Below, one piece after another: positions 32,109 through 63,030 of a DNA stretch of 64,000 bases. Where the stretch lies: positions 45,849 to 109,848 of the IMG/VR virus record IMGVR_UViG_3300037515_000188; one strand, given 5' to 3'. The DNA is from a virus. The position numbers and the translations under genes are program-made. The notes beneath the pieces were generated by a model. It made no database searches. It had not been told where the DNA came from and saw nothing but the letters and a program-made list of their open reading frames with translations. Numbering within the stretch: position 1 is the first letter of the stretch; each line of letters opens with the position of its first letter.

Positions 32109-33095
32109 TTATCCCGATAATGTTGGTGTTATTGTTGGAGTTATTGTTGGAGTTATTGTAACTGTTGGAGTCACGGTAACTGTAGGAGTTATAGTTAATG
32201 TTGGTGTAACTGTTGGTGTCACTGTCATAGTAGGTGTAACTGTTGGAGTCACTGTAACAGTTGGAGTCACTGTAACTGTAGGAGTTACCGTTAATGTTGG
32301 GGTTACAGTTGGAGTTACCGTTAATGTTGGGGTTACAGTTGGAGTTACTGTCATCGTTGGAGTAACAGTAGGAGTAACAGTAGGAGTAATTGTTGTTGTT
32401 GCCGTTACTGTAGGAGTAATCGAAATAGTTGGAGTTACTGATGGATTTGGTGTAACGGTTGGAGTTACAGCAGCAGTAGCCGTTGGAGTTATAGTTGGAG
32501 TTATAGTAACTGTTGCAGTAACTGTTGGAGTTATAGAAATAGTTGGAGTAACCGTCGAAGTAATAGTCGGGGTAATAGAAATAGTGGGGGTAACAGTTGG
32601 GGTAACAGTCGATGTTGGGGTATTTGTTGGAGTATTACTAGGCGTTGTTACCGGGGTTCTAGTTGGAGTAGCAGTTAATGGCGGAGTTCTGGTTGGTGTA
32701 ACAGTTGGAGTAACAGTATTTGTTGGAGTAACCGTAATTGTTGGAGTTGGTGTGAGAAATGGTGCCAGACTAATATATTCATACCCACATACATAAATTA
32801 TTGTAAATCTTACCTTATTACCAAATTTTATTTTCTTTCCAAATTCAATAGAAATTAAATTACCATTATATGATATTTTTTCAGGTATAATTAATTTTAT
32901 TTGATCTTCATCATATTCATAAATTTGAGTCAATGCTACATCAACTGCTCTAGGCAATTCAATTATATGATTTATTTCTGGTGATATAACTGTAGTTGTA
33001 AATCCTATACAGCTACAATCCTTACCTTCTTTTATTACAATTTCACCAGTTATACTATCATATTGTAATTCTTTAAATGTTGAAATGAAATCCAT
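32109..33095 (-). CDS. virion-type protein with about 210-aa mucin-like TPT tail
   Basis: TPT repeats ending TPTLSG. Confidence 0.75.
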
Positions 33096-37434: not shown

Positions 37435-37437
37435 TAA

Positions 37438-37477
37438 AAACCCCACCTGAATACATATATTTATACAGGTGGGGTTT
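37438..37477 (-). promoter_or_regulatory. terminator/RBS-sequestering hairpin with TATAAATA in the loop
   Basis: AAACCCCACCTG / CAGGTGGGGTTT stem. Confidence 0.7.
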
Positions 37478-38359: not shown

Positions 38360-39556
38360 CTATTTCCAATATTTTTTTATTCCGGGAATATTAATTTCAT
38401 GTGGTCTAGGTGGACCATGAAAACATATTATTCTAGCATTTTCAGGTATATGCAATTCATTATGTCGATTTATACAATCTTTTTTATAAGAAACAATTTC
38501 ACCATTATATAAATCTTGAATATAATCATAAGATTTTATTGATTTTTCAATAAATTCTTGATCACCATATAAATGATTTTTTATATTACTTTCACAGGAT
38601 TCCATAAATTTTTCATAAATTTGGTATACTTTTGGATTATAATTTTTCCACATCATAATACCACTTCCAAGCCCAAATTGATTATAAAAATTTCTAAGAG
38701 CTAAAAATTTCCCACTATATGAAAGTATATGATCTATATTTTTAATTATTAAAGTATCCAAATCCAAATAAAATATTTTATCGGTTCCAAATTTACCCGG
38801 TGAAAATAATTCAATTTTTCCCCACCATTTAGGAAAATTATGATCAAATGGAATTATAGAATGTACATTTTTTGAATATCCTTCAAAATGATCTGTCATA
38901 CATATAAATTTATAAGGTATATTCACATTTTCTTTTATACTATTGGCAATATGATTTACATATGAAACATCATATACTCCACCAATTTTAAATACAGTAA
39001 CAATAGAAAGACTTTCTTTATTATTATTATTTAAAATAGGTTTTTTATTATTTGGAAAACATTTAATAATTAAATTTACTTCATAATTATTATTAACTAT
39101 AATTTGCCGAGCTTGTGTTATTTCATTAATATTTTCATTTATGAAATTTTTAATTATTTTATTATTTCCGCTATTTGATTTTTTATCAAACATGGAAAAA
39201 TAAATGGTCGCTCCAAATGACATTAATGGATATATTATTTTTAATATTTCGTCTATATTATAATTAGGATGAACGGTATCAATAAAAGCAAATGATATTT
39301 CTTTTATATTTAAATTATCAAAGTTATCTAACGATGGAATTATATTAAATTTATATTCTTCTATTTTAGAATTTAAATCATTATTCCAATTATTATAAAA
39401 TCCATATATTTTTTTATTATGTTTTTCAAATCCATTTATAAGAATTTTAAATATGGATAAATCATTTAATCCAAATTGTACAACATCTCCAGATATTTTT
39501 TGGATATCAACAATATAATTTTGTAGTTTTGGAACATTTAATTTTTTAACTTTCAT
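38360..39556 (-). CDS. GT-A glycosyltransferase (GT8-like) with a degenerate methyltransferase-like N-terminal domain
   Basis: WWGKIELF, YLDLDTLI (DxD), GDQEFI, ICFHGPPRPH. Confidence 0.75.
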   Translation of the reverse strand: MKVKKLNVPKLQNYIVDIQKISGDVVQFGLNDLSIFKILINGFEKHNKKIYGFYNNWNNDLNSKIEEYKFNIIPSLDNFDNLNIKEISFAFIDTVHPNYNIDEILKIIYPLMSFGATIYFSMFDKKSNSGNNKIIKNFINENINEITQARQIIVNNNYEVNLIIKCFPNNKKPILNNNNKESLSIVTVFKIGGVYDVSYVNHIANSIKENVNIPYKFICMTDHFEGYSKNVHSIIPFDHNFPKWWGKIELFSPGKFGTDKIFYLDLDTLIIKNIDHILSYSGKFLALRNFYNQFGLGSGIMMWKNYNPKVYQIYEKFMESCESNIKNHLYGDQEFIEKSIKSYDYIQDLYNGEIVSYKKDCINRHNELHIPENARIICFHGPPRPHEINIPGIKKYWK

Positions 39557-40203
39557 AACATTAATTCTGAAATTATTTTTTTGGGGAAACATGGTATTGC
39601 ACTGGTCTTAGAACAATTTATTATTTCCAGTGTGGGGTATAATTTTCTTACCTCTTTAGCTAAGGATATAATAGATGGTATAAATTGAGTTTTGTATATT
39701 TCAGGTTTTACAACTAAAATATGATTATTATGAAAATGAGTTTCTCCCCGTTTTTCTGGATTATCCCGCATATCAAATCCTATTAAGTATATTTTTTTGG
39801 GTTTAGTATTAACCACTAGATTTAATGCTTCTGTTCCACTATTATTTCCTCGCACATTATCAATAAGTGGATCATATCCATATTCTCCGGTGTTTAATAA
39901 TACAGTGGCTCCACCGAATGTTTTAATATCATTTTTTATATGTCCTGATCCATATGTTTTAGAGACAAATCTAAGGTCCGATTTATGATTTTTAAATTTA
40001 TGATAATTTCTTGCAGCCCATGACTCATCACACCAAAATAATGCAGTAGCATTTGGAAAACGATCAAATGCATCATTTATCGCAATTACATTTTTATCAT
40101 ATAAATAATCTATATTAATGGATTTAACACTATAACCACCGCCAATAATGAATATATCTTGACCGAAAAATTTATTATATAATTCTTGTAAATGTAGTCT
40201 CAT
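39553..40203 (-). CDS. Maf/DUF115 (CstII-like) sugar transferase-like protein
   Basis: IFIIGGGYS, IAIND, NSG..A, IYLIGFDM, IINCS. Confidence 0.65.
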   Translation of the reverse strand: MRLHLQELYNKFFGQDIFIIGGGYSVKSINIDYLYDKNVIAINDAFDRFPNATALFWCDESWAARNYHKFKNHKSDLRFVSKTYGSGHIKNDIKTFGGATVLLNTGEYGYDPLIDNVRGNNSGTEALNLVVNTKPKKIYLIGFDMRDNPEKRGETHFHNNHILVVKPEIYKTQFIPSIISLAKEVRKLYPTLEIINCSKTSAIPCFPKKIISELML

Positions 40204-43192: not shown

Positions 43193-46180
43193 ATGTTAAT
43201 AGAATTTATTCAAGGTATTTATAAACAACAAGAAACCAGACCATTTTTAACATTAACAGATAATGGTGTGGATTTAAATGTTGATGATTTTCCTACTATT
43301 ATTACTATGACACATGGTAAAAGTAATTATTTATTTACTGAAGATAAATCTATATTAACGGCATGGAAAGGACCATTTTCAAGAAAAAAAAATTCATGGT
43401 TATATTGGAATATTAATACATCTACAGGTAAACGAACATTTGGATATACTACAATAGACCCATATTTAAATAAAGGATATGGTGACACACTCCCATCCAG
43501 ACCAACAAAAGGACAACATTTCTTTTTAATTCCTGAAAATAAAATGAAATATTTTTCAGGAAAATCATGGAAAACAGTTATAAGAGTATTTGCCGGAGTT
43601 GTAAAAGATAATGGAAAATTAGAAATATATCCTAATGGCAGTCAGATAAATCGTAATATATATACAAATGCTGGACATATTTTATTTGATTATAATAATA
43701 TCCCTGTTAAAAAATCTGGTAAATTTAATAAAACTGAATTTGTAACAACTGAAACATTTTTTTCCCCACAAGATGATTTAAATAATAATTATAAAATAGA
43801 AAATATTCAAATAAATGCTAGAGCAATAGAACCTATAGCAAAATATCATTGTATTAATTTTAAAGGTCCAAAGAAATATGGAATGGCATCCAGATTAAAT
43901 CCAAAAGAGCCATGTATAGGCATAGCAGTTGAAAAGTTTGATAAAGATAAAATAGGTAAAGTATTAACTTATGGTATAATTCAAAATAGAGATTTTTGGA
44001 ATTTTAAAGAACCATACGGTACTAGTATTTGGGTTGGTGATCATGGTGAAATAACTACCATTATTCCTAAAGATACATCTATACAAAATATAGGATATGT
44101 AGTTAATAATACTACAGTTTTTATAGATATAAGATATGTAATACAAATGATAAGACATGATGAAGATTGTATTATACCATCTCCTACTCCAACAACAACT
44201 ATGACACCTACTCCTACTATAACAACTACTGCGGTTCCTACTCCAACTCCTAGTCAAACATCTGAAATAACTCCTACACCAACTATTACTTCAACAATTA
44301 CCTCAATTGTAACTCCAACTGTTACTCTTACAACTACTATAACTCCAACAATTACTAATACTATAACTCCAACATTAACAGTCACTCCAACAATTACTAA
44401 TACAATAACCCCAACAATAACCCCAACAATAACGCCAACTGTAAGTGAAACTATAGGATTTCTTTCTGATGATTATATTGTATTCAGGGCAAGTAATGGA
44501 GATATTCACTATATGCATGTTGATATTACTTCTGGAATTATAACATTTTTTGGCGATCCATTTGTTGGTCCTGTAAATAGGACTTTATCATCTGATGGAG
44601 AATTTATATTTGTTCCTAGAGGAAATGGTGAAATTTATCAATATGCATGGAATGGATCAAATTTAAGTAATAGATTTGGCATAGGAAATCCGGTAATAAC
44701 AGGAGATCAATATGAAGTTTCTTATGTTATGCCAAATAATATTGGAAATCTTTTACATGTAGATGAAGATGCTGGGGATGGGTTATCAATATTTTCATAT
44801 GAAACAGCGCCTCCATATTCATATGGTATTCCAGAAACTTTTAATACAGGAAATTCCTTTTGGACAGTTATAATGGACTTTAGAGTCGGATTTGAGGGAA
44901 TTCCAACATATGGAGATACTATAGTTGTTGGTGGGCAATTTGGAAGCCAAGATATCAGATCATTTACAGCTTCTGGAACAACATTAATTGCACATGATGA
45001 TATAAATATAGGAAGTGTACGTGTAAATATGCATAATATAGCATGGGATAGAGATACCGGACTTATAGCTAGTTTTAATGATAGTTCAACAATAACTTTT
45101 GTACAATTAAATATGACTACAAGAGAACTTTCTAGTTTGGGAACAGGAAATACATTAGATACAATTAAAGCAGCAGCATTTACTAATGGGTATCTTTTAA
45201 CAGTGGAAGAGGTAATAACTGGTGATATACTATTAAACACATATTCAATTTCTGGAATAACATTGACTCCAATAGATTCATTAAATTATTCCGCAGAACT
45301 TACATCAATTGGGGCTAATACTATAATGTTGACAAGTCCATTTACTGATGCGGTATTTTTAATTCCTAATCAAAGTGATTCTTATATATTTACAGTAGAT
45401 GATATGGGAAGTATAACAGAAATTGCTAAAGCAGACGTTGGTGGTGTCTCAATTGATTATGGAAATCCTGTTGCATTTATAGGTGGGGAATTACCAATAG
45501 TACCATCAACACTATTAGATGGATTAATATCGTTTTGGAATTTAGATGAAATTTCTGGAACACGAATTGATTCTCATACAAATAATTACGATTTAATTGA
45601 AAATGGCACCGTTGGACAAGAAAGTGGAGTTGCTAGTATAAGATTTTCAAGTTCTACTATTGGTGGGTCTTCAGATCATTTATCAATTTTACAATCTTCT
45701 GCTCCGTTATTGTTCCCAACTGATTCAGATTTTACTATATCAGCATGGATATATTTAGACCCGGAGCCAACAACTTTAGATACTGGAATTATATCAAATT
45801 GGGATTCGGGGAGCGGTTTTAAAGTGTGGATTCCTCCTGCTTCTTATGAAATACAATGGTTAGTTAATGGATCATTTGTATCGTTCCCGGTTTCATCTGT
45901 TTTTATTGCATCTTCATGGAGACATTTCATATTTTATCATGATTCAATTAATGATGAAATTGGTATAATATATAATACTGGAACACCGGATGTTGTAGCT
46001 CATGCAACTGGTATAAATTCTCCGGGAAGCGCAATACCATTTAAACTTCATCAATATGGTAGCGGCACATTAAGTTTTGGTGGTCGGTTAGATGATGTTG
46101 GTGTTTGGAACCGGTTATTAACTTCAGATGAAATAGAGGAACTGTATCATAATGGTGGAAGTTTACCATATCCCGGATAA
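43193..46180 (+). CDS. large virion protein: structural N-domain, TPT linker, propeller-like region and C-terminal LamG
   Basis: GLISFWNLDE...FTISAWI...GRLDDVGVWNRLLT; TATAAATA upstream. Confidence 0.8.
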   Translation: MLIEFIQGIYKQQETRPFLTLTDNGVDLNVDDFPTIITMTHGKSNYLFTEDKSILTAWKGPFSRKKNSWLYWNINTSTGKRTFGYTTIDPYLNKGYGDTLPSRPTKGQHFFLIPENKMKYFSGKSWKTVIRVFAGVVKDNGKLEIYPNGSQINRNIYTNAGHILFDYNNIPVKKSGKFNKTEFVTTETFFSPQDDLNNNYKIENIQINARAIEPIAKYHCINFKGPKKYGMASRLNPKEPCIGIAVEKFDKDKIGKVLTYGIIQNRDFWNFKEPYGTSIWVGDHGEITTIIPKDTSIQNIGYVVNNTTVFIDIRYVIQMIRHDEDCIIPSPTPTTTMTPTPTITTTAVPTPTPSQTSEITPTPTITSTITSIVTPTVTLTTTITPTITNTITPTLTVTPTITNTITPTITPTITPTVSETIGFLSDDYIVFRASNGDIHYMHVDITSGIITFFGDPFVGPVNRTLSSDGEFIFVPRGNGEIYQYAWNGSNLSNRFGIGNPVITGDQYEVSYVMPNNIGNLLHVDEDAGDGLSIFSYETAPPYSYGIPETFNTGNSFWTVIMDFRVGFEGIPTYGDTIVVGGQFGSQDIRSFTASGTTLIAHDDINIGSVRVNMHNIAWDRDTGLIASFNDSSTITFVQLNMTTRELSSLGTGNTLDTIKAAAFTNGYLLTVEEVITGDILLNTYSISGITLTPIDSLNYSAELTSIGANTIMLTSPFTDAVFLIPNQSDSYIFTVDDMGSITEIAKADVGGVSIDYGNPVAFIGGELPIVPSTLLDGLISFWNLDEISGTRIDSHTNNYDLIENGTVGQESGVASIRFSSSTIGGSSDHLSILQSSAPLLFPTDSDFTISAWIYLDPEPTTLDTGIISNWDSGSGFKVWIPPASYEIQWLVNGSFVSFPVSSVFIASSWRHFIFYHDSINDEIGIIYNTGTPDVVAHATGINSPGSAIPFKLHQYGSGTLSFGGRLDDVGVWNRLLTSDEIEELYHNGGSLPYPG

Positions 46181-49567: not shown

Positions 49568-49734
49568 TTTGTATCCTTTAAAATTATAATTTTCCCTCCC
49601 AACTAAATAATAATCCATTTGAGATAAATGTTCAAGACATTTTTCATTTAAATCAGGGCAATGTTTTTTAACTATTGAAATACAATCTTCTGAATTATCA
49701 GGACATATTTTATTTAAAAAATCATTTTTCATAA

Positions 49735-51177: not shown

Positions 51178-52908
51178 ATGACTATTAAAATATTATTCAC
51201 AGAAGAAGAAAAACAAAAAATAATAAATTTATATAAAAATGACATTGCAATAAAAAATATAACAAATATTTATAACTGTTCTGTCACTACAATAATTAAT
51301 TTATTAAAAAATGAAAAAATTTTTAAACCTGCAAAATATAAAAATCTTGCATATAAGTATATAAAATATACAAAATCAAAAAAATTATGTGAGAAATTAT
51401 ATAATAATAGTTCATCATTGAAAGATTTTTCTAATAAATTAGAATGTAGTATTGATATGGCTAGAAATATTTTATTGGATCATAATATAACTATATTGGT
51501 ATCTCATGAAATTAAAAGAAAAAATTCAATCCCGTTAAATGAAAAGGATATAATATTTAATTATATTAATAATGATTTTAGCATATCAAAATTAAAAAAT
51601 AAATATAAAACATCATCTAATACAATAAAATCAATATTAACAAAAAATAATATAAAAATAGTCAATAATTCAATTAAACAATTATCTAAAAATGCTAAAC
51701 TTGCATTAAATGATTTTAATTATGCTAAAACACAATATGAAAATAGTATAACTCTTTTTGGATTTCAACAAAAATTAAATTGTGGTGCTTTGACGGCTAA
51801 AAAAATAATAGAATTTCATGGTTTAAAAAATTTTACAATAACAGATAGTAAATATAATAAATATGTAGCAACCTTTCATAATAATTTTAAAAATTTTAAA
51901 TTAATTGATAAATCGGGACCATATTTAACAATAAATCATAATATTTGTGATAAAAAATTTAGTATAACAACACAAACTGCTGGAAAATGGAAACAGTATG
52001 ATGATAATGATTTATGTCCATATTGTAATAATAGATATAAGACTTCAAAATTTGAAAAAGATATAAAAAACTTTTTATTAGACAATAATATATCATTTGT
52101 ATCAAATGATAAATCAATATTAGGTCATAATTTAGAATTAAATATATTATCAAAAGAGTATAATATAGCCATAGAATGTTGTGAGCTATATTGGCATTCA
52201 AATATATTTAAACATAGGACATATCATTTAGATAAATTAAAATTATGTAAAGATAAAAATATAAAATTAATAACTATATTTGAAGATGAATGGAAATATA
52301 AAAAACATATAGTTGAAAATAGATTATTATATGCATTTGGTATTATTGATAAAAAAATATATGCAAGAAATTGTTCTATAATTACTAATATAAATAAAAA
52401 TGATGCATTATTATTTTTAGAAAAAAATCATATACAAGGAAAGGATAATGCTAAAATATATTTGGGATTATCTTATAATAATGAAATAATAGGAATTTGT
52501 AGTTTTAAAAAACCAAATGTATCTACTAATAATGTAACAGATAATAAAAATATATACGAATTATCCAGATATTGTACATCCATACATACTATTGGAGGAT
52601 TTTCAAAATTATTATCACATTTTATAAAATTATATAATCCCGAAAAAATAATAACATTTTCAGATCGAAGATGGGGTGAAGGAGAAGTATATTCAAAAAA
52701 TAAATTTACTTTTATCCATTCCACTAATCCCAATTATTGGTATGTAAAAGGATTAAATAGAATTCATAGATATAATTTTGCAAAACATAAATTAATTAAT
52801 AAATTTCCAGAATATAAAAGTTTAACAGAATCTCAAATAGTTGAAAATGAATTAAATTATAATAAAATTTATGATTGCGGTTCCAATAAATATGAATTTA
52901 TTAAATAA
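51178..52908 (+). CDS. Hef-like homing endonuclease (HTH repeats, PD-(D/E)xK domain and C-terminal domain)
   Basis: IAIEC..LYWHS, IFEDEW, YARNC, NHIQG, ELSRYC, GGFSKL, YDCG; ELNI in place of ELDI. Confidence 0.8.
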   Translation: MTIKILFTEEEKQKIINLYKNDIAIKNITNIYNCSVTTIINLLKNEKIFKPAKYKNLAYKYIKYTKSKKLCEKLYNNSSSLKDFSNKLECSIDMARNILLDHNITILVSHEIKRKNSIPLNEKDIIFNYINNDFSISKLKNKYKTSSNTIKSILTKNNIKIVNNSIKQLSKNAKLALNDFNYAKTQYENSITLFGFQQKLNCGALTAKKIIEFHGLKNFTITDSKYNKYVATFHNNFKNFKLIDKSGPYLTINHNICDKKFSITTQTAGKWKQYDDNDLCPYCNNRYKTSKFEKDIKNFLLDNNISFVSNDKSILGHNLELNILSKEYNIAIECCELYWHSNIFKHRTYHLDKLKLCKDKNIKLITIFEDEWKYKKHIVENRLLYAFGIIDKKIYARNCSIITNINKNDALLFLEKNHIQGKDNAKIYLGLSYNNEIIGICSFKKPNVSTNNVTDNKNIYELSRYCTSIHTIGGFSKLLSHFIKLYNPEKIITFSDRRWGEGEVYSKNKFTFIHSTNPNYWYVKGLNRIHRYNFAKHKLINKFPEYKSLTESQIVENELNYNKIYDCGSNKYEFIK

Positions 52909-53473
52909 TTATTTCATATATTGAATTTTTATTTAAATGAGGAATATCACAATCTGGTATATCTTTATTAACAAATTTACACAAATCAACCCACCCAGAT
53001 TTAAAATTATATATCAATAATTTTTCCTTTGGTATAGCATCTATAATATATTCTCTATGATTAATAAAACTTAATTTAGCTATGGTTTGATTATATTCTT
53101 CAAATGAAAAAAATTCTCCCAAACTAGTTCTATCTAAATCATTAATTCCATTTTTAGGAATCATATTGTTTAATAATGCTGTATAATTTTTATGTAAATT
53201 TACACGTTCAAAAGAATCCAACCATTCATCTATATCGCGGTCACAATATATAAATTTATGATTTTCATTATGAATTAAAGTATTAATAACACTAGGGACA
53301 TATATTGGAGTGTCGGCAAATACTTGAATTTTATTTTCATTTAAAAGTCTTTTTAATGCTGTGGATGGTACATGTTTAAATGTAAATCCTAAAATACTCA
53401 CCATTTTACACATACTTTTAGTTCCAGTACGAGGGGGACTTACTATAAAATATTTTTTCATTTTTGTTGTCAT
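52901..53473 (-). CDS. sulfotransferase-family P-loop protein
   Basis: PRTGTKSM, DTP, RDIDEWLDSF, GWVDLCKF, IPHLN. Confidence 0.75.
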   Translation of the reverse strand: MTTKMKKYFIVSPPRTGTKSMCKMVSILGFTFKHVPSTALKRLLNENKIQVFADTPIYVPSVINTLIHNENHKFIYCDRDIDEWLDSFERVNLHKNYTALLNNMIPKNGINDLDRTSLGEFFSFEEYNQTIAKLSFINHREYIIDAIPKEKLLIYNFKSGWVDLCKFVNKDIPDCDIPHLNKNSIYEIII

Positions 53474-53483
53474 TTATAATTTT

Positions 53484-55139
53484 TTAATTAGTATAATGCT
53501 CATTTTCTCGTCTAATTTCTTTTTTATAATGAAATTTTCTATTATGTGTTATAATACTCCCCAATATACATCCGGCTTTAATTTTTTCTTCCATAATTAA
53601 TTCCATTACATGGCTCATCCATGTTTGTTCATATTTATGTTCAAATTTTGTATGTAAAAATATTTTTTTATTTCCCTCTTTAGTAAATAGTATAGGCCAA
53701 TTACAATAATGATATTCCCCTACAGCATATGGAACTCCACGGAAAGAATTAATATAAAAAATTTTTGTTTTTTTTGGGTCCGTATAAATAATTCTTTTAT
53801 TAAACCATTTTTCTTTTTTTTCTTGTGGAACATTATACCACGCCCAGTTGTCCGTATTCGTGCCATAAAACTCGGAAAATGACAATTTTAAATAATCTAA
53901 ATTTTCACTCTCTATTATTGTCATAGCTTTTGAAATAGCATTAGGAAAATATTTTTTGAACCCAGTTTTGCAGGCTATAGATGAATCTTCTTCACCGCAC
54001 AATAACATATCATCTTCAAAAAATATCATATATTTATGATTATTTTCTTCAAAATGTTCTGCTGCAAATTGTCGTCCACCACATATTCCAATATTATCAA
54101 ATTTTATTTCAATAAATTCATATTTTTTAAATAATTCATTATATTCATCTGCTACACTTGGATCAGTTGAATTATTAATTACATATTTTGTAGTATCTTC
54201 TTTTAATCCAATTTCAAAATTTTTATTAAATTTTTCAGCCCATATTTCAAATTGTTTTGGGAGATTAAAGGTTAATACATAAATTGCCAATAATGATTTA
54301 AAATAATCTATGCTTAAACTTTTTATATATTCCAAAAATTTAAATACTAAACCATTACTTTCTATCATATGAATTGTACATAAATGTGGATGTTTATAAG
54401 TAATAATAGTAAATATACTTTCTTCCGTTCCCATATATCCTGATTGTAAAGTATTGGATAATATACCATAATAAATATCATTTATTATATTAATCGCATC
54501 TTTACTACCACCAAATATTCCCCCACGAGAAACATATTCTGTTTTTTGACCAGCATAATTATATAATGCATTTTTTTCAAATCCATGAATTTCTGTGTCT
54601 GCATTATATGGAAAACAAACATAATGCATTTTGTTATCACTGAATATTTTAGATAGTTTTTCTCCAAATTCAGAATCTATATAATTTACAGGATCACCAA
54701 TAGTATTTGATATACCACCATCTATCCATAAAAAATATTTTGTATCAAATATATTAAATAAAGTGGCATCATTTAAAAAAAATTGTTTGCTCATAACTAA
54801 TGGATTATAAAGTGATAATTTAGCTTGTGGACTATCTTCTATCCATCCTGCTCTATGTATCCATTCTTTTTGATTTCGTATTTCTTGAATTTCATTATAA
54901 AATGGAAATAATTTAAGATCATCTAATTCTTTATTAACAATATATGTTGGACGATCTCCTCTTTCATTCGTAACCATAACAGTTAATTCTTTAGGTATAT
55001 ATATTATCATTGGATATTCTATTTTTAATAATTTTTTGAAACATTCAACATAATGATCAAAACTTCTAGAAAATCCATTGACCAATTCCCCGCGACCAAT
55101 ATCAAATAATCCTGTAACAATTGTTAATTGATTTTTCAC
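53484..55139 (-). CDS. HtrL/YibB-like domain fused to a GT-A glycosyltransferase domain
   Basis: TIVTGLFDIGR, LWIDGG, GGIFGG, GTEES; C-terminal IGICGGR...FFEDDM. Confidence 0.75.
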   Translation of the reverse strand: MKNQLTIVTGLFDIGRGELVNGFSRSFDHYVECFKKLLKIEYPMIIYIPKELTVMVTNERGDRPTYIVNKELDDLKLFPFYNEIQEIRNQKEWIHRAGWIEDSPQAKLSLYNPLVMSKQFFLNDATLFNIFDTKYFLWIDGGISNTIGDPVNYIDSEFGEKLSKIFSDNKMHYVCFPYNADTEIHGFEKNALYNYAGQKTEYVSRGGIFGGSKDAINIINDIYYGILSNTLQSGYMGTEESIFTIITYKHPHLCTIHMIESNGLVFKFLEYIKSLSIDYFKSLLAIYVLTFNLPKQFEIWAEKFNKNFEIGLKEDTTKYVINNSTDPSVADEYNELFKKYEFIEIKFDNIGICGGRQFAAEHFEENNHKYMIFFEDDMLLCGEEDSSIACKTGFKKYFPNAISKAMTIIESENLDYLKLSFSEFYGTNTDNWAWYNVPQEKKEKWFNKRIIYTDPKKTKIFYINSFRGVPYAVGEYHYCNWPILFTKEGNKKIFLHTKFEHKYEQTWMSHVMELIMEEKIKAGCILGSIITHNRKFHYKKEIRRENEHYTN

Positions 55140-56026
55140 TATTTTTTAATCTCATCAAAGAAATCACAAAAACTTATTTGCGATGAATTAAATCTATTAT
55201 CTCCCCAATCCGCATGATACCACGTATTAAAACTAAATATTTTTATTGGAAATGTTTCTTCTGATAATATATACGTCATTAATTGTTCTTCTTTATATAA
55301 TTTCTTTTCTTTTAGAAAAAATTCAAATAATTCTATTATTCTATCACAATATGAATCAATTAAAGAAACATGTCCCCCAAAAATTCCTCCTATTACTGAT
55401 CCTTTAAAATTTTTATGAATTGAAGTATGTGCTATAGGATGTTGAGGATTTATTGATACTATATTTAATATATTATCTCCGGTATAATTTATTAAATTAT
55501 CCATGAAATTTTTATTAAAAATTAAATCATTTTTAAATGTAAGAGGATATGTTTCTTTATTTAAATCATGAATAAAATTAAGATTATGTTCAAAATTAGA
55601 ATTAAATCTACTATGAATTATTCCACTATGCGATATTCCAGCATCAATCCAAAATATATTTTCAATATTAGGATTTAATTTTATTGTTTCTTTCATAAAA
55701 ATAAATTTTCCCCACATAATTTCCATGCACCGATCTCTCCAATCTGGGGACGTTCTATATAAATCAGAATATAAATCTCTTATATTATTTACTTCTTCAT
55801 GAAAATATAATTCATATAAACTTTTCGGTATAAAATTTATATTTAATTCAGTAAATTCAGTTTTAAATTTATTTATTTCTTCCGGAGATGTATAACATGT
55901 TATATCAGTACCAGAATTAACAATAGTTTTTAGAGAATATGAATATGGACGATCACGATTTAATCTTCCACATAATTTTGTATGATTTAATCCATTATAA
56001 ATACAAGTTACTAATTTATTTAACAT
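55139..56026 (-). CDS. HtrL/YibB-like putative glycosyltransferase
   Basis: MWGKF, FWIDAG, GGIFGG, EEQLM. Confidence 0.7.
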   Translation of the reverse strand: MLNKLVTCIYNGLNHTKLCGRLNRDRPYSYSLKTIVNSGTDITCYTSPEEINKFKTEFTELNINFIPKSLYELYFHEEVNNIRDLYSDLYRTSPDWRDRCMEIMWGKFIFMKETIKLNPNIENIFWIDAGISHSGIIHSRFNSNFEHNLNFIHDLNKETYPLTFKNDLIFNKNFMDNLINYTGDNILNIVSINPQHPIAHTSIHKNFKGSVIGGIFGGHVSLIDSYCDRIIELFEFFLKEKKLYKEEQLMTYILSEETFPIKIFSFNTWYHADWGDNRFNSSQISFCDFFDEIKK

Positions 56027-56028
56027 TA

Positions 56029-58326
56029 TTATTCCATAAATGTATAATTATTCTTATCTTCTAAAAATACTATTGTCAGAAAATCATTATCTTTTGCTCC
56101 TCTATTATGAAATAAATGATAGCGAAGGTTTCCTTCATATGTTCGAGTTAATTTTAATATATTTTCTGTATATCCTGCATATAATTGAAAACTTGGAAAT
56201 TTATTTTCAAAATCATATTTAAATTTATCATCTATAAATTTTTTCATAGATGGCTCCAATGTTTCATCACATACATTTAATATAATACTGTCAGATAAAT
56301 TTGATTTATTCATATATTTAGCGTAAAAATGATTTAATTTTTCAAAAGAATTTTCTAATGATAAATCAACTATTATATGAAAATCCGCACCTTGATTATT
56401 TTCAGCAACAATGTCTTTTATCCATAATGGTTTTATAAAATTTATTTCCTTTCCTTTATATCCAGCGGATTCTAACATCTCTTTATAAAAGAATTTATTT
56501 TCATCCATGAACAATAAATTTATATTTGAGAATTTAGAACTTATTATATTTTCATGTACTTGATTTGCAATTATGCATATTTTTTTACTTTTATACTCTA
56601 ATTGTTCTATTATTGATATTATTTGTTCTAATTTATTATTATCCGTTGTATACATTAAAATATATAAACATGAATTAGATGAATCCATTGATATATTTTT
56701 TGGACGTAGTAAATCCGTTAATTCTCTTTCTTTTCGTTGTTTAAATATTAAATTAGAATTATAATATATACAATCTAATTCTGTTTTTATTAAAATTTCA
56801 AATGCATCACTTAAACGTGTCAATATAGGTTTTCCATTAACATTAAATGATGTATTTAATATCACACCATATCCACTAAGTTTATCAAATTCATCAATAA
56901 TAGTATATAAAAATTCATTTTGATCTTTTGTTATAGTTTGTAATCTACCTGTTCCATCAACATGAGTTATTGCCGGAAAATCATATTCTTTGTTTACTGT
57001 TGCAATATATGTCATATGTTGACTTTCATATGAAAAATCAAAATATTTAGATACATCTTCAAATTTCACAACCGGGGCAAATGGTCTATACCACTCTCTA
57101 TGTTTAACTTTAGCATTTAATATATCCTTCATATTTCCAACCGGATTACATATAATACTTCTATTTCCGAGTGCTCGTGGTCCATGTTCAGAATTTCCAT
57201 GTATTATACCAATTATATAATTATTTTCCAATAAAATAGCGATATCTTTTTCTGTAATATTTTCTATAACTGAAACTGGATTATCTTCCAATAATGCAGA
57301 ATAATTTAATGTATCCATTATTGGCAAACCAGAATATGTAATATCAATTTGTTTTTCTGGTTTAATATATTCTAATAATCCACCAATTGCTATTCCACAA
57401 TCATTTGTGTTTGGTGGAATATATACATTTCCATCTTTAATAATATTAATTAATTTACTATTTAATATTACATTTAATGCACATCCACCAGATAAACAAA
57501 CCGGATATGAAGAATATTTGGAAATATATGGCATTGCCAACTCTAAAAATACATTTTCAAATGCTTGTTGCGATGTAGCTGCCATATCCCATGAAAATTG
57601 TCCTTTAAATCTGGTTGTCTCTAAATCAAAATCAATTATTCCTATGGAATTAAATAATTCTTTTGTTACAGAATAACGAATTTCTGCCCCTCCGGCATAT
57701 GAATTGCCAGCATATCTAAATTGTTTATAGAACTTTTCAAAATGTGGTAGCCATTTTTCATTTACTTTACCATATGCACATAATCCCATTAATTTTCCGG
57801 CATACACTAAATTACCTATATTTAAAGGTTCTTTCGTTATATCTTCCATATGATCTGCTAATATCATATAAGGAAATCCAAGATCAATATCGAATTTATC
57901 TATTAATTTTGGTCCAATATTTCTAGTGTTTGCCAGATATACATTAAAAAATGCACCATTTCCCCCTCCATCATAAGTAAATATTAAAGATTTATTATAT
58001 GGAGATTGATAAAATGCACAAGCTGCATGGGCTGCATGATGGTCAAATCTTTTATGTTGTTTTATATTATAATTTGATAAATCAACTTTAGAAAAATAAT
58101 TTGATAAAAATATATCAATAACATTTGTATTAGTTTTTTCAAAAATATAATTTAAAATGTCATCAAACACTTTTTGCGGACATTTTGCAGGCAGATATCC
58201 CGCTAAACCTGCATTTTTTTTATTTAACCATCGTTCTAATTCTATAATATAATATTTTTCATTATAAAATGCAGCTATTGCTGCGTTATGTGATCCATAT
58301 GCAGATATTAATAACCCATCAGTCAT
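56029..58326 (-). CDS. O-carbamoyltransferase (NodU/CmcH family) with C-terminal extension
   Basis: ELER, HHAAHAA, YDGGG, GKLMGL, SGGCALNV, NDCG, EHGPRALGNRSI, HREWYRPFAP, HVDGTGRLQ, LNTSFN. Confidence 0.93.
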   Translation of the reverse strand: MTDGLLISAYGSHNAAIAAFYNEKYYIIELERWLNKKNAGLAGYLPAKCPQKVFDDILNYIFEKTNTNVIDIFLSNYFSKVDLSNYNIKQHKRFDHHAAHAACAFYQSPYNKSLIFTYDGGGNGAFFNVYLANTRNIGPKLIDKFDIDLGFPYMILADHMEDITKEPLNIGNLVYAGKLMGLCAYGKVNEKWLPHFEKFYKQFRYAGNSYAGGAEIRYSVTKELFNSIGIIDFDLETTRFKGQFSWDMAATSQQAFENVFLELAMPYISKYSSYPVCLSGGCALNVILNSKLINIIKDGNVYIPPNTNDCGIAIGGLLEYIKPEKQIDITYSGLPIMDTLNYSALLEDNPVSVIENITEKDIAILLENNYIIGIIHGNSEHGPRALGNRSIICNPVGNMKDILNAKVKHREWYRPFAPVVKFEDVSKYFDFSYESQHMTYIATVNKEYDFPAITHVDGTGRLQTITKDQNEFLYTIIDEFDKLSGYGVILNTSFNVNGKPILTRLSDAFEILIKTELDCIYYNSNLIFKQRKERELTDLLRPKNISMDSSNSCLYILMYTTDNNKLEQIISIIEQLEYKSKKICIIANQVHENIISSKFSNINLLFMDENKFFYKEMLESAGYKGKEINFIKPLWIKDIVAENNQGADFHIIVDLSLENSFEKLNHFYAKYMNKSNLSDSIILNVCDETLEPSMKKFIDDKFKYDFENKFPSFQLYAGYTENILKLTRTYEGNLRYHLFHNRGAKDNDFLTIVFLEDKNNYTFME

Positions 58327-59971
58327 TTGTATTTGGTTTCCACAAGTAAACATCATTTCCGCAATCCCAAATTCTATAATATCCATTATTCATCATATTT
58401 TTATACTCTGATAAATTAGGATCAAAAGTTTCCAATAACTTTGGAAGTTTATGTTTTTGAAATTTATTTCTAGAATATAATTCAAAAATATTATTTATGT
58501 GGAAATATTTGTAATTGGGGGTTGATCGTCGTATTAATTTAAATCCATTCATAAAGTAAATGGAGCCAGAGAAATAAGCAATATCGCAATAAGATATTAT
58601 TGATTCTGGATTAACTTTTATAATAAAATATTTAAATAATTTTGAAAACCCACCTAAAACAGTTATCCCTAACTTATTAGAAAATCTATATAATTCATAT
58701 TCAGCATCTTTACTAAATCTTGAGTTTGAAATTGTCATAACTGAAACCAATTCATTATTGTAAAATAAACCATATCTATATTTTGATGGAATGCTACCTT
58801 GTAAATGATTTTTATTTAAAAATTCAGAGCTAATATTATGAGATAATTCTTTTATTTCACATTTTCTTGCTGGTATTTTTTGATTAATAATATCTAATTT
58901 TTTCTTAATTAAATCCTTTACTATATCTTTTTTTGTCCCCCATTCTGAATCTGTAATATGAATTACATTATATCCATTATTTTCAGCTACCAATGTTTTA
59001 TTTAAATGATAATTTTTATCTTTATGTGTATCAGAATGCCAATATACACCGTTACATTCTATAGCCAATTTTTTATCTGGTAATACGATATCCAGTTCGT
59101 TTGGTGCTATTATAATTCTATCATTATTTAAAACAGTTCCAGAATATATAGATTTTATATATTTAGTGATTTCATATTGAAAAACACTTCCATTAGAAAT
59201 TAATGTATCCACCCATTTAATATTGCTTAAATTCCTGTCTTCAATAATACCATCTACAGTTTTAATTCGAATAGGACTCTTATTATTTTTATATTCAGTA
59301 GATATTAATTCTCCGCCTCTTGATTCAACAATTTTTCGAACATCTTCTATAGTATGCCGTTGTTTCTCAAATCTACTTTCACGAATATATTCTTTTGAAT
59401 ATAATTTGTTCAATTTTCTAATGGATACCAACCCTCGTTCTTCTATTACTCCATCAATTGTTTGAATTTTAATGGGATCATTATATTTTGCTATTGTAGT
59501 TGATAATAGTTTCCCCCCTCTACGTTCTACAATATTTTTAATTTCATTTAAAGACAATTTATTATTTTGGCGTCTATTTTCTATAACTTCTTTCATTGAA
59601 ATTAATTGTTCAGAACTCCGTATACTGCATAAAGATCGTTCTTCAATCTCACCATCAGAAAATTTAATTTTTATTGGCGTTAAATCATTTACATATTCGG
59701 TAGAGAGTAATTCTCCGCCCTTAGATTCAATAATTTTTCTAACTTGATCTATAGATAATCTTGATTTATCAGATAATGATTTTATTTGATTTTTCTTGGA
59801 AATTAATTTTTTGGATGGATATATATTAGTCAAACATCTTGTTTCTATCTCTCCATCTGATGTTTTAATCGTAATAGGGACATTAGTCCCCCCATATTCA
59901 GTAGAAATTAACTCTCCACCTTTAGATTCAACAATTTTTCTAACTTCTTCTATTGATAATTTTTTACCCAT
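58319..59971 (-). CDS. Hef-like homing endonuclease with four N-terminal repeats of about 68 aa
   Basis: SIEEVRKIVESKGGEL repeats; ELDI...AIECNGVYWHS; ARKC; NHLQG; WDCG. Confidence 0.8.
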   Translation of the reverse strand: MGKKLSIEEVRKIVESKGGELISTEYGGTNVPITIKTSDGEIETRCLTNIYPSKKLISKKNQIKSLSDKSRLSIDQVRKIIESKGGELLSTEYVNDLTPIKIKFSDGEIEERSLCSIRSSEQLISMKEVIENRRQNNKLSLNEIKNIVERRGGKLLSTTIAKYNDPIKIQTIDGVIEERGLVSIRKLNKLYSKEYIRESRFEKQRHTIEDVRKIVESRGGELISTEYKNNKSPIRIKTVDGIIEDRNLSNIKWVDTLISNGSVFQYEITKYIKSIYSGTVLNNDRIIIAPNELDIVLPDKKLAIECNGVYWHSDTHKDKNYHLNKTLVAENNGYNVIHITDSEWGTKKDIVKDLIKKKLDIINQKIPARKCEIKELSHNISSEFLNKNHLQGSIPSKYRYGLFYNNELVSVMTISNSRFSKDAEYELYRFSNKLGITVLGGFSKLFKYFIIKVNPESIISYCDIAYFSGSIYFMNGFKLIRRSTPNYKYFHINNIFELYSRNKFQKHKLPKLLETFDPNLSEYKNMMNNGYYRIWDCGNDVYLWKPNTND

Positions 59972-60070
59972 TATAACATTATATCATTAAAATACATAAT
60001 AATCAAGATGTTAATCGATATTTTTACCTATTATTATATTATATCAATAAAATACATAATAATCAATAGT

Positions 60071-61441
60071 TTAGTCAATATTTTTAACCATTCTATTTAA
60101 CCATCCATCAGATTTACTATGTGGCCATACAGTAAAGGTTACTGGAATTTTATTAGCTAAAAATATTAATCTGAAGTCAAACCATTCATTTTGTAAATAT
60201 GTTTTTATTTTTTGTTCCGTTAAATCTTCTCTATATATTTCTTCATAATTTTCATCATGAGACCCCACATAAAAGAAATCATAATCATCTTTTAATTCAC
60301 CTAATTCATCTCTATGGAAAATTATTCTAACATCATTTGATCGACAAAATGATTCTCGCCATGCGTCTTCTGTTGTATAAGGATAATTATTTGGTGGGTC
60401 CTTTCTGTCTATAGTATCTTGTTGAACTCCTCTATATTTAAAACATATTCCCGCATATTCTTCATATTCTCTTAATGTTCGTTCTGTACCAAAACCATAT
60501 TTTCCAAAATCAATTTGTTTTGGGTCTTCACCATCCATACCAAAAAGTATTCTATTCCTCTTATGGGATAAATTATTTCTTTCAACCCAATCTAATTCTA
60601 TAATACCTTTTTTCTTTTCTGGAGTAGTGTGATCGTCCCAAATTTTCTGTCTATTCTTCCGGGTGTATTCGTGCCACGCTATTACTTTATGAGGATGAAA
60701 TAAATCATATCCATGCGTAAATGCTCTTACAGCTATTGATATTTCTTCACCATGGAAAAAATAATTTGGATCATGCTGTACTTCTGTTACAAATTTCCCA
60801 TCTGTGAAACAAAAATGTGCAGAATAAAATCTAGATTTCATAGGTTTATCTAATTCTTTCCAATTATCTATAGTAGAAGGTCTAAAAAATACTGCTCCTT
60901 CTGGTATAAATCTATCAAAATCCATTTTCCATGGGGCCTGAATTCTTGATTCTGGGTCATTATCCGGGTCAAAAGATGGTATATATGCTGTTAATAATGG
61001 TTTTCTACATTCTAAAGTTCTAATAGATTCCAATATATTAATAGATTCTTTATCCCAATGTTTAATAAATCTATGATGAGAATCCAATTGCAATGTATAT
61101 TTCTCATTTTTATAAAATTGTTGTATTTTATTTCTAGCCCAACAGGCACCCTTTGTTGAATTATAATCAATATCTAAAATAGTTAATTTTGAATTTAATT
61201 TTTCCGCAAATATAACATTAGATATATGTTTATAATCATCAATATCTTGAGATGGGTCTTCAAATCCTAAAATATTAAAATCATTTTCTATAAAATCTTC
61301 TAATGTTTCTCCCGATCCGTGTTGCCATGCAATAACAATATGTAAATTTGAAGGATTTTCAGCATTTTCTATTATATTATTTAATGTGGGTAAAAGTTGC
61401 GGGTCTTTATAACTCGCAATCTGGACAAAAATACTATCCAT
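60071..61441 (-). CDS. GT60-family polypeptide N-acetylglucosaminyltransferase
   Basis: IFVQIASYKD, GACWAR, LQLDSHHRF..WD, LLTAY, SAHFCF, FHGEE....RAFTHGYDLFHP. Confidence 0.85.
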   Translation of the reverse strand: MDSIFVQIASYKDPQLLPTLNNIIENAENPSNLHIVIAWQHGSGETLEDFIENDFNILGFEDPSQDIDDYKHISNVIFAEKLNSKLTILDIDYNSTKGACWARNKIQQFYKNEKYTLQLDSHHRFIKHWDKESINILESIRTLECRKPLLTAYIPSFDPDNDPESRIQAPWKMDFDRFIPEGAVFFRPSTIDNWKELDKPMKSRFYSAHFCFTDGKFVTEVQHDPNYFFHGEEISIAVRAFTHGYDLFHPHKVIAWHEYTRKNRQKIWDDHTTPEKKKGIIELDWVERNNLSHKRNRILFGMDGEDPKQIDFGKYGFGTERTLREYEEYAGICFKYRGVQQDTIDRKDPPNNYPYTTEDAWRESFCRSNDVRIIFHRDELGELKDDYDFFYVGSHDENYEEIYREDLTEQKIKTYLQNEWFDFRLIFLANKIPVTFTVWPHSKSDGWLNRMVKNID

Positions 61442-61467
61442 TTTTAAGTCTCTCCTATTCAATATTC

Positions 61468-61836
61468 TTACGTATATTGAGAGCGTTTTGGAGCTACTGA
61501 TACACTACCACGTTTAGGCTTAGAGATTTGTCCACTCGGATATAATATTTTAACATATTGGTGGAAATAATCTAATGCATTAACTCCATTACCTAAAGTT
61601 ATATCAGCTAATGTTGAATACAATGGTTGAAAATCATTAACTCTGGCACTTTTCTGAAGAACTTCAAGAAGTCTTTGCTGATCAATATCATCTAATTCAC
61701 TATTTTTAATAAACCAAATCTCATAAATTGGCGCATTCTTTTCATCTTTACCAACTTCTATAGCTTTGACCACAGTGACTTCCTCGGCAATCCCATTTCG
61801 TTTTAAATCTAAATATTTTATAAATTTTGTTTCCAT
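61468..61836 (-). CDS. hypothetical phage protein
   Basis: SD aggag; LGNGVNALDYFHQ. Confidence 0.65.
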   Translation of the reverse strand: METKFIKYLDLKRNGIAEEVTVVKAIEVGKDEKNAPIYEIWFIKNSELDDIDQQRLLEVLQKSARVNDFQPLYSTLADITLGNGVNALDYFHQYVKILYPSGQISKPKRGSVSVAPKRSQYT

Positions 61837-61919
61837 AATAAAAACTCCTGTAATAAATATACTTGTAAAACAAGTTTTTGTTAATAATATTTATTAGTAA
61901 TAAAATAAGGTGTAACTAT

Positions 61920-62351
61920 ATGAAAGAATATAAGGATAAAACATTAAGAGCGGGCATTATTCCGTTCTATAAAGATAAGAATGATAAAATAATAATGTTG
62001 TTTATGAAACCGTCAAATAAAAAATTTGGTGGGAATAAATTTCAAATAGCTAAGGGAAAAATAGATAAAGGAGAAAATCCATTAGAATCTGCTATTAGAG
62101 AAGCCAAAGAAGAATTAGGTCTTATAGAAAATAATATAAAATGGATTAAAAAGGCTGGTATATATTTAGATAATCATCATATTTTTATAGCTGAGGTTAT
62201 TAACAATAATTCTACAAATTTTAATACTCCACATTATGAAACGGGAGATACTAAATGGATGCAATTGGATGAATTTATGGTTATTGGACGTGAACTACAT
62301 ATCCCTATAATCAAAAAATGTTATAAATTAATTAAACAGGAACTTTATTAA
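61920..62351 (+). CDS. NUDIX hydrolase
   Basis: KGKIDKGE....AIREAKEELG (Nudix box). Confidence 0.9.
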   Translation: MKEYKDKTLRAGIIPFYKDKNDKIIMLFMKPSNKKFGGNKFQIAKGKIDKGENPLESAIREAKEELGLIENNIKWIKKAGIYLDNHHIFIAEVINNNSTNFNTPHYETGDTKWMQLDEFMVIGRELHIPIIKKCYKLIKQELY

Positions 62352-63030
62352 AATTAACAGATAATTTAGAAATAATAGCTGTTAAATTATTTATAAAGAA
62401 AAATCCATTATGTTCATAATCTTTATTTCCTCCTAAATTTATTATAAATTCTTCTGGATTAAAATTATTTGGAACAAAATATGCACAAACTAATTTAGTA
62501 TTTGATTTATGAATATAATCATTTATAGATGAAATTCCCCCATTAGTTATACCACATTTAAAATAATTTCTTTGAAAACCGGGATTAAAAATAATATAAA
62601 AAATATTATTTAATTTTAATATTGTTTCCTCTTTAGATAATAATGTTAATCCTAAAAAGTTTGCCCATGATACCCATTCATCTTTATTTCTATAATATAA
62701 ATCAGGTCGGCGTGGTATATCATTAGGTACTTTTTCGTCATCATTTTTATCTAACCATTGTTGTTTAGTAGATATATTTAATGATTGAGCAAACGCCCGC
62801 GCTTCAATAAATGATCTATATGTTTTTCTTATTATTGGAAACGGATTATTATTCCCTAAAAAATTATTCCATGTAGTAAAATCTTTATAATATGCCCTAT
62901 CTGGTCTTTTTGGTATTCCAGCAGGCTTATTTAAATTATGCCATTTTTTATATTGGGCAACAGATTCTATTCGCTCACTTTGAACTATTTTTTTAGCTTC
63001 CTCAAAAGGTAAATTTACACGAAACGCCAT
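62332..63030 (-). CDS. protein with two phage-integrase-repeat-like units (putative DNA binding)
   Basis: F.EA.........W......IP.RPD..Y...W..FLG x2. Confidence 0.6.
   Translation of the reverse strand: MAFRVNLPFEEAKKIVQSERIESVAQYKKWHNLNKPAGIPKRPDRAYYKDFTTWNNFLGNNNPFPIIRKTYRSFIEARAFAQSLNISTKQQWLDKNDDEKVPNDIPRRPDLYYRNKDEWVSWANFLGLTLLSKEETILKLNNIFYIIFNPGFQRNYFKCGITNGGISSINDYIHKSNTKLVCAYFVPNNFNPEEFIINLGGNKDYEHNGFFFINNLTAIISKLSVNFNKVPV

Follow-up and report, generated by a model that had tools for sequence, protein, structure and literature searches.

What would a large phage do with a glycosyltransferase of family GT60, encoded in one cluster with a carbamoyltransferase and a sulfotransferase, and which molecules would such enzymes modify? 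The question is raised by a 64,000-nucleotide (nt) stretch of viral DNA (the window), which is the final 64 kb of a 109,848-bp jumbo-phage contig, the IMG/VR record IMGVR_UViG_3300037515_000188 (~28% G+C; CheckV completeness, 47%). A preliminary description of the window had pointed to a co-oriented cluster, here called the cassette, encoding a GT60-like enzyme with a DSH motif, a carbamoyltransferase, two HtrL/YibB-like proteins, and a sulfotransferase. It had also listed six open reading frames (ORFs) with Thr-Pro tracts and proposed that GT60 initiates O-glycosylation on them. We found all genes of the cluster in place, with matching profile searches, and the six tracts proved real. It is likely, in our view, that this phage encodes a cytoplasmic mucin-type O-glycosylation of its own fiber-like proteins. 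The idea of GT60 as the initiator on phage Thr-Pro tracts gains support from the predicted fold of the enzyme, its two-way co-occurrence and adjacency with tract genes, the lack of membrane segments in the cassette enzymes, the lack of a hydroxymethyl-pyrimidine route, and the Schiff-positive virions of the cultured relative XacN1.

The GT60 enzyme, its candidate acceptors, and their association across genomes

By sequence, the putative initiating enzyme is a bona fide member of PF11397/CAZy GT60. It matched PF11397 over profile positions 1 to 350 of 352 (E = 5.7e-77; 260 bits against a cut-off of 21) as well as phrog_24687 (E = 2e-176). The ORF as listed reaches 61462 from a TTG, and its likely true start is M8 (61441). 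The metal-binding DSH motif (D127-S128-H129) was invariant across 39 GT60 homologues. A structural model (predicted local distance difference test [pLDDT], 94) showed a GT-A fold, and its top 29 structural matches were all polypeptide N-acetylgalactosamine (GalNAc) transferases (ppGalNAc-Ts T1, T2, T4, T7, T10, and T12, Toxoplasma T3, and Drosophila PGANT9), with Z scores of 19 to 22 and a root mean square deviation of 3.4 to 3.8 Å over ~280 residues; the next fold was that of LARGE1 (Z = 16). The modeled fold is thus nearest to the mucin-type polypeptide GalNAc-transferases (GT27), a family to which the enzyme does not belong, because the two are only 12 to 16% identical and no Pfam Glycos_transf_2 or Ricin match was obtained. 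An additional beta-rich C-terminal domain of ~90 amino acids (aa) is conserved and also present in bacterial homologues. We failed to find any solved PDB homologue by sequence for GT60, queried as a single sequence or as its 39-sequence profile, or for the 551-aa protein of the cassette.

The tracts of the six ORFs are, by position, 35, 110, 221, 98, 137, and 99 aa long, with 12 to 99 Thr each and ~300 Thr in total. They consist mostly of TPT-[VILMT] repeats, and a DNA pattern for TPTxTPTxTPT occurred 10 times in the contig, the reversed pattern 0 times. The tract genes lie near a protein with tail-fiber PHROG matches, and, judged from such homology and neighborhood, all six products are presumably virion proteins. 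The three minus-strand tract genes at 32109-33095, 34738-35964, and 35974-37446 all end in TPT(L/I)SG right before the stop codon, and this common end could act as a signal at the terminus or reflect a recent exchange of tracts among the genes. The shortest tract ORF, at 15768-16040, is in frame with a 98-aa ORF at 15468-15764, with TAA and one codon between them (tgg gat taa gtc atg); the two may be coupled genes, or the stop codon of a single gene may be read through.

The co-occurrence of GT60 with TPT tracts, which the preliminary description had set as a check, was found in both directions. The TPTxTPTxTPT pattern was present in 24 of 47 GT60-bearing IMG/VR records, including all 4 complete genomes, and in 0 of 44 control records (Fisher P = 3e-9); the reversed pattern was found in 0 of the 47. 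The controls had been chosen for collagen-like Gly-X-Y repeats, another fiber repeat, and comprised 2.9 Mb (median, 43 kb), compared with 3.8 Mb (median, 42 kb) for the GT60 records. Conversely, PF11397 was detected in 12 of 46 records chosen solely for (TPTx)5 and in 1 of the 44 controls (P = 0.0017), with 10 of the 12 matches scoring 160 to 210 bits. Tracts accompanied 13 of 19 GT60 clusters (70% identity), and the tract proteins near GT60 fell into ~22 clusters without detectable similarity outside the tracts, indicating that the association is not one inherited coincidence.

Adjacency points the same way. In distant phage loci (L030, L031, L033-L036, L038, L039, L042, and L071), the ORF directly upstream of GT60, in the same orientation, carries a tract. 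Bacterial GT60 homologues of equal length occur in many phyla, and a tract directly upstream of GT60 was seen in bacterial records labeled Gemmatimonadota, Sphingomonas/Novosphingobium, Saprospiraceae, Planctomycetaceae, and Vicinamibacterales. The gene order GT60-carbamoyltransferase-HtrL is kept in phages and in Bacteroidota genomes. Three Bacteroidota loci (L346, L350, and L352) carry a GT60-carbamoyltransferase-HtrL/GT-A operon, one of them (L350) in the cultured Jiulongibacter sediminis JN14-9 with an adjoining TP-tract gene. Five further loci (L347, L354, L359, L370, and L382) are short contigs of ~29 to 33% G+C in metagenome-assembled genomes labeled Proteobacteria, Alphaproteobacteria, Gemmatimonadota, "bacterium," and Chitinophagia. 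Most of them carry parts of the cassette, namely GT60 and the HtrL/GT-A gene, with an HtrL-like gene as well in L347, and GT60 with the carbamoyltransferase in L370. These contigs look like phage sequence that was wrongly binned with bacterial genomes.

The nearest complete relatives of the window phage are jumbo phages of 315 to 350 kb with terminal repeats, and both structural proteins and the cassette are common to the window and the cultured jumbo phages XacN1 and Xoo-sp13 (Xanthomonas) and CM1 and RAS14 (Stenotrophomonas), whose GT60 enzymes are 57 to 62% identical to that of the window. By megablast, the cluster DNA had no match among GenBank phages. In XacN1, ORF334 is the GT60 enzyme (PF11397, E = 3e-77; 61.6% identical to the window GT60), followed by ORF333 (carbamoyltransferase), ORF332 (HtrL-like), ORF331, and ORF330 (HtrL/GT-A). 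ORF331 (L001, 16586-17326), a gene of 246 to 247 aa without a Pfam family between the HtrL-like and HtrL/GT-A genes, is also found in Xoo-sp13 and is absent from the window and its closest relatives; several metagenomic relatives probably have such a gene too, judging from a gap of gene size at the corresponding position. Two large XacN1 proteins encoded beside the tail sheath genes, ORF370 and ORF372, share the Cys-rich N-terminal domain of the tract protein at 35974 (tblastn, 37% identity over 99% of the N-terminal 339 aa; E = 7e-68) and contain several long TPT tracts, and ORF236, likewise a tail-module protein, has tracts in two regions, one reaching its C terminus. XacN1 virions yielded at least two bands stained by periodic acid-Schiff, for which ORF328 and ORF334 were proposed as the enzymes; the text of that paper gives no protein names for the stained bands and no link to the tracts (PMC5852040).

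Composition of the cassette and its surroundings

The cassette spans 52.9 to 61.5 kb on the minus strand in the order GT60, homing endonuclease, carbamoyltransferase, 295-aa protein, 551-aa HtrL_YibB protein, and 190-aa Sulfotransfer_4 protein (Table 1). The genes from the carbamoyltransferase to the sulfotransferase are separated by only 2, -1, and 10 nt and therefore form an operon-like block. We failed to find a membrane-spanning hydrophobic segment in any cassette enzyme, and the proteins are predicted to be soluble.

The carbamoyltransferase ORF is listed to 58386, and alignment places its likely true start at M21 (58326), giving 785 aa. It matched Carbam_trans_N (E = 2e-30; 107 bits, cut-off 24), Carbam_trans_C (E = 1.5e-54; 185 bits, cut-off 27), and phrog_1601 (E = 8e-125), and scored 151 bits against the NodU equivalog cut-off of 1000. 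Residues H116, H117, and H120 are invariant, and the hallmarks of a Kae1-like N-terminal and a YrdC-like C-terminal domain were found. Residues ~21 to 547 make up the enzyme part; the last ~230 aa are HtrL-like (hhalign against the HtrL-like family, probability 92.7%, E = 4e-7), and this C terminus is missing from the ~526-aa carbamoyltransferases of relatives that fall outside the XacN1-like group.

The 295-aa protein had no Pfam match of its own. PF09612 was matched by 5 of 20 members of its family, and the family aligned with the HtrL domain at an hhalign probability of 99.3% (E = 1e-20), so profile comparison identifies it as a divergent HtrL paralogue. It is present in 28 of 59 GT60 loci. 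The most constant partner of GT60, in 46 of the 59, is the 551-aa double protein. Its residues 4 to 256 matched PF09612 (E = 1.2e-21; 78 bits, cut-off 24.1), with a score of 85 against the YibB equivalog cut-off of 265. The structural model (pLDDT 92) has two GT-A-like domains, in agreement with the earlier proposal that the second domain of one HtrL protein is GT-A, a fold now predicted for its C-terminal half. The top Foldseek matches were two-domain glycosyltransferases (LH3, K4CP, mimivirus R699, LARGE1, COLGALT1, and PmHS2). Taken singly, the C-terminal domain reached Z = ~14.8 (B4GALNT1, GnT-I, POMGnT1, and TarP) and the N-terminal HtrL domain Z = 13.3 (BoGT6a). The sulfotransferase matched Sulfotransfer_4 (PF17784; E = 7e-26; 91.8 bits, cut-off 22.8) and carries the motif SPPRTGTKS, of the loop for 3′-phosphoadenosine-5′-phosphosulfate (PAPS), at residues 12 to 20.

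The gene between GT60 and the carbamoyltransferase does not encode a pathway enzyme; its PHROG matches identify a homing endonuclease, and it overlaps the annotated carbamoyltransferase start. Its product and that of the related gene adjoining the cassette are alike in having a weak Vsr/MTES_1575-like nuclease core and repeated N-terminal modules. Such genes are sporadic in related loci and differ in their positions there, suggesting that they are actively mobile within the cassette and near it.

Table 1. Features of the window that bear on the proposed glycosylation system (positions in the 64,000-nt window)
Feature	Position	Strand	Basis
90-aa ORF with a 35-aa Thr-Pro tract	15768..16040	+	Sequence
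Small-domain protein, 110-aa tract (52 Thr), acidic tail	31406..32104	-	Sequence
Small-domain protein, 221-aa C-terminal tract (99 Thr), end TPTLSG	32109..33095	-	Tract matches phrog_15511
Fiber-like protein, 98-aa C-terminal tract, end TPTISG	34738..35964	-	N-terminal domain paralogous to 43193-46180
Fiber-like protein, Cys-rich N-terminal domain and 137-aa C-terminal tract	35974..37446	-	XacN1 ORF370/ORF372 homology
Further glycosyltransferase between fiber genes	38360..39592	-	phrog_1962, E 4.5e-42, residues 196-409; no Pfam family
Maf/MptE-like, sialyltransferase-like protein	39553..40203	-	phrog_4603 "sialyltransferase," E 2.6e-30; PF01973, E 0.003, below cut-off
995-aa fiber-like protein: N-terminal domain, 99-aa tract, beta-rich middle, C-terminal concanavalin A (ConA)-like lectin/glucanase domain	43193..46180	+	Laminin_G_3, E 4.8e-15
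Related homing-endonuclease-like gene	51178-52908	+	MTES_1575 nuclease match (weak)
PAPS-type sulfotransferase, 190 aa, accessory member	52901..53473	-	Sulfotransfer_4, PAPS-loop motif
Double glycosyltransferase, 551 aa: N-terminal HtrL_YibB and C-terminal GT-A with EDD motif	53484..55139	-	PF09612, model
Stand-alone divergent HtrL/YibB-like (GT-A-like) protein, 295 aa	55139..56026	-	Profile comparison
NodU/Nol-type O-carbamoyltransferase with C-terminal HtrL-like domain	56029..58326	-	Carbam_trans_N/_C, phrog_1601, hhalign
Homing endonuclease, 550 aa, between GT60 and carbamoyltransferase	58319..59971	-	phrog_3339, E 1.8e-104; phrog_559, E 2.9e-101
GT60 (PF11397), putative polypeptide N-acetylhexosamine (HexNAc) transferase, initiating enzyme	60071..61441	-	Pfam, PHROG, fold

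Two genes near the fiber genes had been described as GT8-like and Maf-like. The first did turn out to match a generic phage glycosyltransferase family but no Pfam GT8 model, and the second is well matched by a PHROG sialyltransferase family, but its Pfam match (MptE-like) is weak. A 390-aa neighbor protein matched only unnamed viral clusters in the protein atlas. The 578-aa product of 16857-18593 (+), with ~11 leucine-rich repeats of the BspA type (LQSVPLFNTA...) and tail-fiber PHROG matches in its N-terminal region, is probably a receptor-binding protein.

Upstream of GT60, two conserved genes of 122 and 232 aa without family matches (61468..63030, minus strand) are syntenic with it in the XacN1-like group only. 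Thymidylate synthase (48695-49732, minus strand) has an N-terminal extension of ~65 aa outside the Pfam and NCBIfam models. Two TnpB/OrfB_IS605-type genes (Cas12f1-like TNB domain; phrog_506 transposase) are located at 46765-47925 (+) and 22229-23392 (-). No sugar-nucleotide synthesis genes were seen when we looked for them within the 64-kb window; the "dehydrogenase" at 27467-28597 was rejected as a candidate, being IMPDH/GMP-reductase-like.

The proposed pathway and its alternatives

In the pathway that we propose, GT60 would act late in infection, transferring a HexNAc residue, probably alpha-linked N-acetylglucosamine (GlcNAc) donated by UDP-GlcNAc, to hydroxyl groups of Thr in the TPTx tracts of fiber-like or appendage proteins. 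Chain extension would fall to the double HtrL/GT-A enzyme and the separate HtrL-like protein, the carbamoyltransferase would O-carbamoylate a sugar hydroxyl from carbamoyl phosphate and ATP, and the sulfotransferase would add sulfate from PAPS. Further sugars might be added by the products of the glycosyltransferase and Maf-like genes near the fiber genes. The outcome would be stiff, hydrophilic, protease-resistant glycan-coated stalks on the tail appendages. We infer both the carbamoylated and sulfated state of the glycan and the role of its coat.

Several observations weigh against this proposal. Glycosylation in the window phage is proposed from its genes, and the virion placement of the six tract proteins from homology and neighborhood. 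The Schiff-positive bands of XacN1, unnamed in the text of the paper, could stem from another glycosyltransferase or from co-purified polysaccharide. In the window phage and its XacN1-like relatives, the cassette lies 15 to 45 kb from the tract genes, beside replication or nucleotide genes (ThyA in the window; DNA polymerase, RNase H, and NUDIX in XacN1), and the GT-A domain of the 551-aa protein faintly matches DNA glycosyltransferase families, namely the TET-associated glycosyltransferase TAGT (PF20691; E = 0.005; 17.1 bits, cut-off 27.5) and the beta-glucosyl-hydroxymethylcytosine alpha-glucosyltransferase family phrog_842 (E = 0.001).

The statistics have their own weak points. The compared phages are partly related, and therefore the record counts are not fully independent. 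A T/P-tract ORF was located within 8 kb of GT60 in 36 of 80 bacterial loci, often ending at the GT60 start, a count that lacks a control. One GT60 cluster of nine records with the full cassette (L060-L068) had no tract in the 20 to 89 kb of sequence of each, so that its acceptor either lies in the missing half of the genomes or is of another type. The cassette of these records consists of GT60, a short 526-aa carbamoyltransferase, and the HtrL-like and HtrL/GT-A genes, and one of them is G044, of 89 kb. DNA ligase, used as bait for clade-matched control relatives, returned one locus only. A tblastn search with the fiber N-terminal domain for cultured phages without GT60 matched only the same four GT60-bearing phages, and therefore no within-family contrast is available.

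One alternative, unlikely in our judgment, grants that GT60 glycosylates the tracts, with the carbamoyltransferase, sulfotransferase, and HtrL-like proteins acting elsewhere, or with tract proteins that are not part of the virion and are, for example, secreted or cell associated. In its favor, the sulfotransferase occurs in only 5 of the 59 related loci, and 24 of them have the carbamoyltransferase; the virion placement of the tract proteins of the window phage is a prediction, the glycoprotein bands of XacN1 are not named in its paper, and no tail fibers were visible on XacN1 by electron microscopy. On the other hand, the tight spacing from the carbamoyltransferase to the sulfotransferase and the conservation of the GT60-carbamoyltransferase-HtrL order in phages and Bacteroidota speak against this reading. 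The tract proteins, moreover, are homologous to XacN1 tail-module genes and are encoded near the protein with tail-fiber PHROG matches, and one of them has a C-terminal lectin-like domain.

A different target, and one that strikes us as decidedly improbable, would be the host: the enzymes might remodel surface glycans such as lipopolysaccharide (LPS) or capsule, or glycosylate host proteins, for instance to block superinfection, and leave the phage proteins untouched. Bacterial HtrL/YibB genes sit in LPS-core and lipooligosaccharide loci, as the family name and PMC4172580 indicate, NodU-type enzymes carbamoylate free oligosaccharides, and PHROGs classes both GT60 and the carbamoyltransferase as "moron/auxiliary metabolic gene." Glycosyltransferase clusters of jumbo phages have also been interpreted as modifiers of surface polysaccharides (PMC7824862). 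Yet the cluster contains no flippase, polymerase, initiating phosphotransferase, or membrane segment, and the cassette is ~60% identical between a phage of ~28% G+C and phages of Xanthomonas and Stenotrophomonas, hosts with very different envelopes. To our knowledge, all characterized GT60 enzymes act on polypeptides, and a host target would not account for the way these genes co-occur with, and adjoin, phage genes for tract proteins.

Hypermodification of the phage DNA against restriction, with glycosylated, carbamoylated, or sulfated hydroxymethyl-pyrimidines and with the tracts as unrelated linkers, is suggested by the position beside ThyA or DNA polymerase, RNase H, and NUDIX genes, by the two faint DNA glycosyltransferase matches, and by the well-known decoration of DNA by phage glycosyltransferases, but we regard it as very unlikely: the window thymidylate synthase has the score of a canonical one (TIGR03284; 243 bits, cut-off 108); complete relatives have at most one gene of that family each, and G011 has the cassette without any; Tet_JBP was not found in five records, in a search without a positive control; the XacN1 genome was mapped with BssHII, NaeI, and SpeI digests, its DNA being cut by restriction enzymes (PMC5852040); no DNA glycosyltransferase appeared among the top 50 structural matches of either model, the GT60 fold being nearest to polypeptide transferases; and the two-way association and adjacency with tract genes would go unexplained. 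The TAGT and phrog_842 matches, which are below threshold, are read as generic GT-A similarity.

Glycosylation of the phage's own tract proteins also invites a bolder extension, which we would call a long shot. The double HtrL/GT-A enzyme might resemble LARGE1 or the polymerases of chondroitin and heparosan in its action and build a repeating carbamoylated, sulfated polysaccharide on GT60-primed Thr. The tail appendages would then be proteoglycan-like, bearing a coat of the glycosaminoglycan type that a virus makes in the cytoplasm of a bacterium, and in many bacterial phyla the same machinery might act on Thr/Pro proteins that are secreted.

Significance and comparison with known systems

Phage-particle glycosylation is known experimentally mainly from mycobacteriophages, in which it shields virions from antibodies. 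If our proposal is true, there would be a second phage glycosylation system with a different mechanism, widespread among bacteria and large environmental phages, that applies the initiation logic of protist and animal mucins to Thr/Pro tracts and may decorate the glycans with carbamoyl and sulfate groups. The "PT linkers" that are so common in phage fibers would then have to be read differently, with a bearing on host recognition, protease resistance, adhesion to mucus or biofilms, and the immunogenicity of therapeutic jumbo phages. The proposal is testable because the cassette is present in the cultured phages XacN1, Xoo-sp13, CM1, and RAS14 and in bacteria such as Jiulongibacter sediminis JN14-9.

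In full-text literature searches for GT60 with phage and for PF11397, nothing relevant was found, and no paper among the results tied GT60 to phage Thr/Pro tracts. The closest counterparts by family are the protist GT60 alpha-GlcNAc-transferases, i.e., Dictyostelium Gnt1 and pp-alphaGlcNAcT2 and the mucin initiators of Trypanosoma cruzi, which the window enzyme resembles in the full-length family match, the DSH (DxH) motif, and the genomic association with Thr/Pro-rich tracts as candidate acceptors. Unlike these, it is encoded by a phage (homologues being found in many bacteria too), is predicted to be soluble without a membrane anchor, and has the extra ~90-aa beta-rich C-terminal domain; its activity is assigned by sequence and stays putative. 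In T. cruzi gp72, a PTVTPT-type domain was named as the probable site of phosphoglycan chains (PMC3630849). The GT27 polypeptide GalNAc-transferases of animals and apicomplexans, the closest solved fold, likewise have a DxH motif and initiate dense O-glycans on Thr/Pro-rich tracts; apart from its low identity to them and the missing GT2 and ricin-lectin matches, the window enzyme differs in being cytoplasmic rather than a Golgi protein. With respect to the 551-aa protein, LARGE1, the chondroitin polymerase K4CP, PmHS2, LH3/COLGALT1, and mimivirus R699 also have two GT-A-like domains per chain, but the likeness is confined to the domain folds, because whole-chain TM-scores are ~0.27.

Among phage systems, mycobacteriophages encode glycosyltransferases whose O-linked sugars, attached to terminal extensions of the phage structural proteins, form a glycan shield (Freeman et al. 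2023, cited from PMC12619734). According to that account, the acceptors there are the C termini of capsid and tail-tube subunits, whereas here they would be long internal or C-terminal (TPTx)n stalks of fiber-like proteins; by the same description, the present system is set apart by its lead enzyme, GT60, and by its carbamoyltransferase and sulfotransferase. XacN1, Xoo-sp13, CM1, and RAS14 share with the window the GT60/carbamoyltransferase/HtrL-like/HtrL-GT-A cassette and the homologous Cys-rich fiber N-terminal domain with TPT tracts, but their cassettes lack the sulfotransferase, their hosts are Proteobacteria, and XacN1 has a GT9 gene nearby. To these systems the window adds a carbamoyltransferase that ends in an HtrL-like domain, a sulfotransferase, and a connection to cultured phages for which glycoprotein staining has been published.

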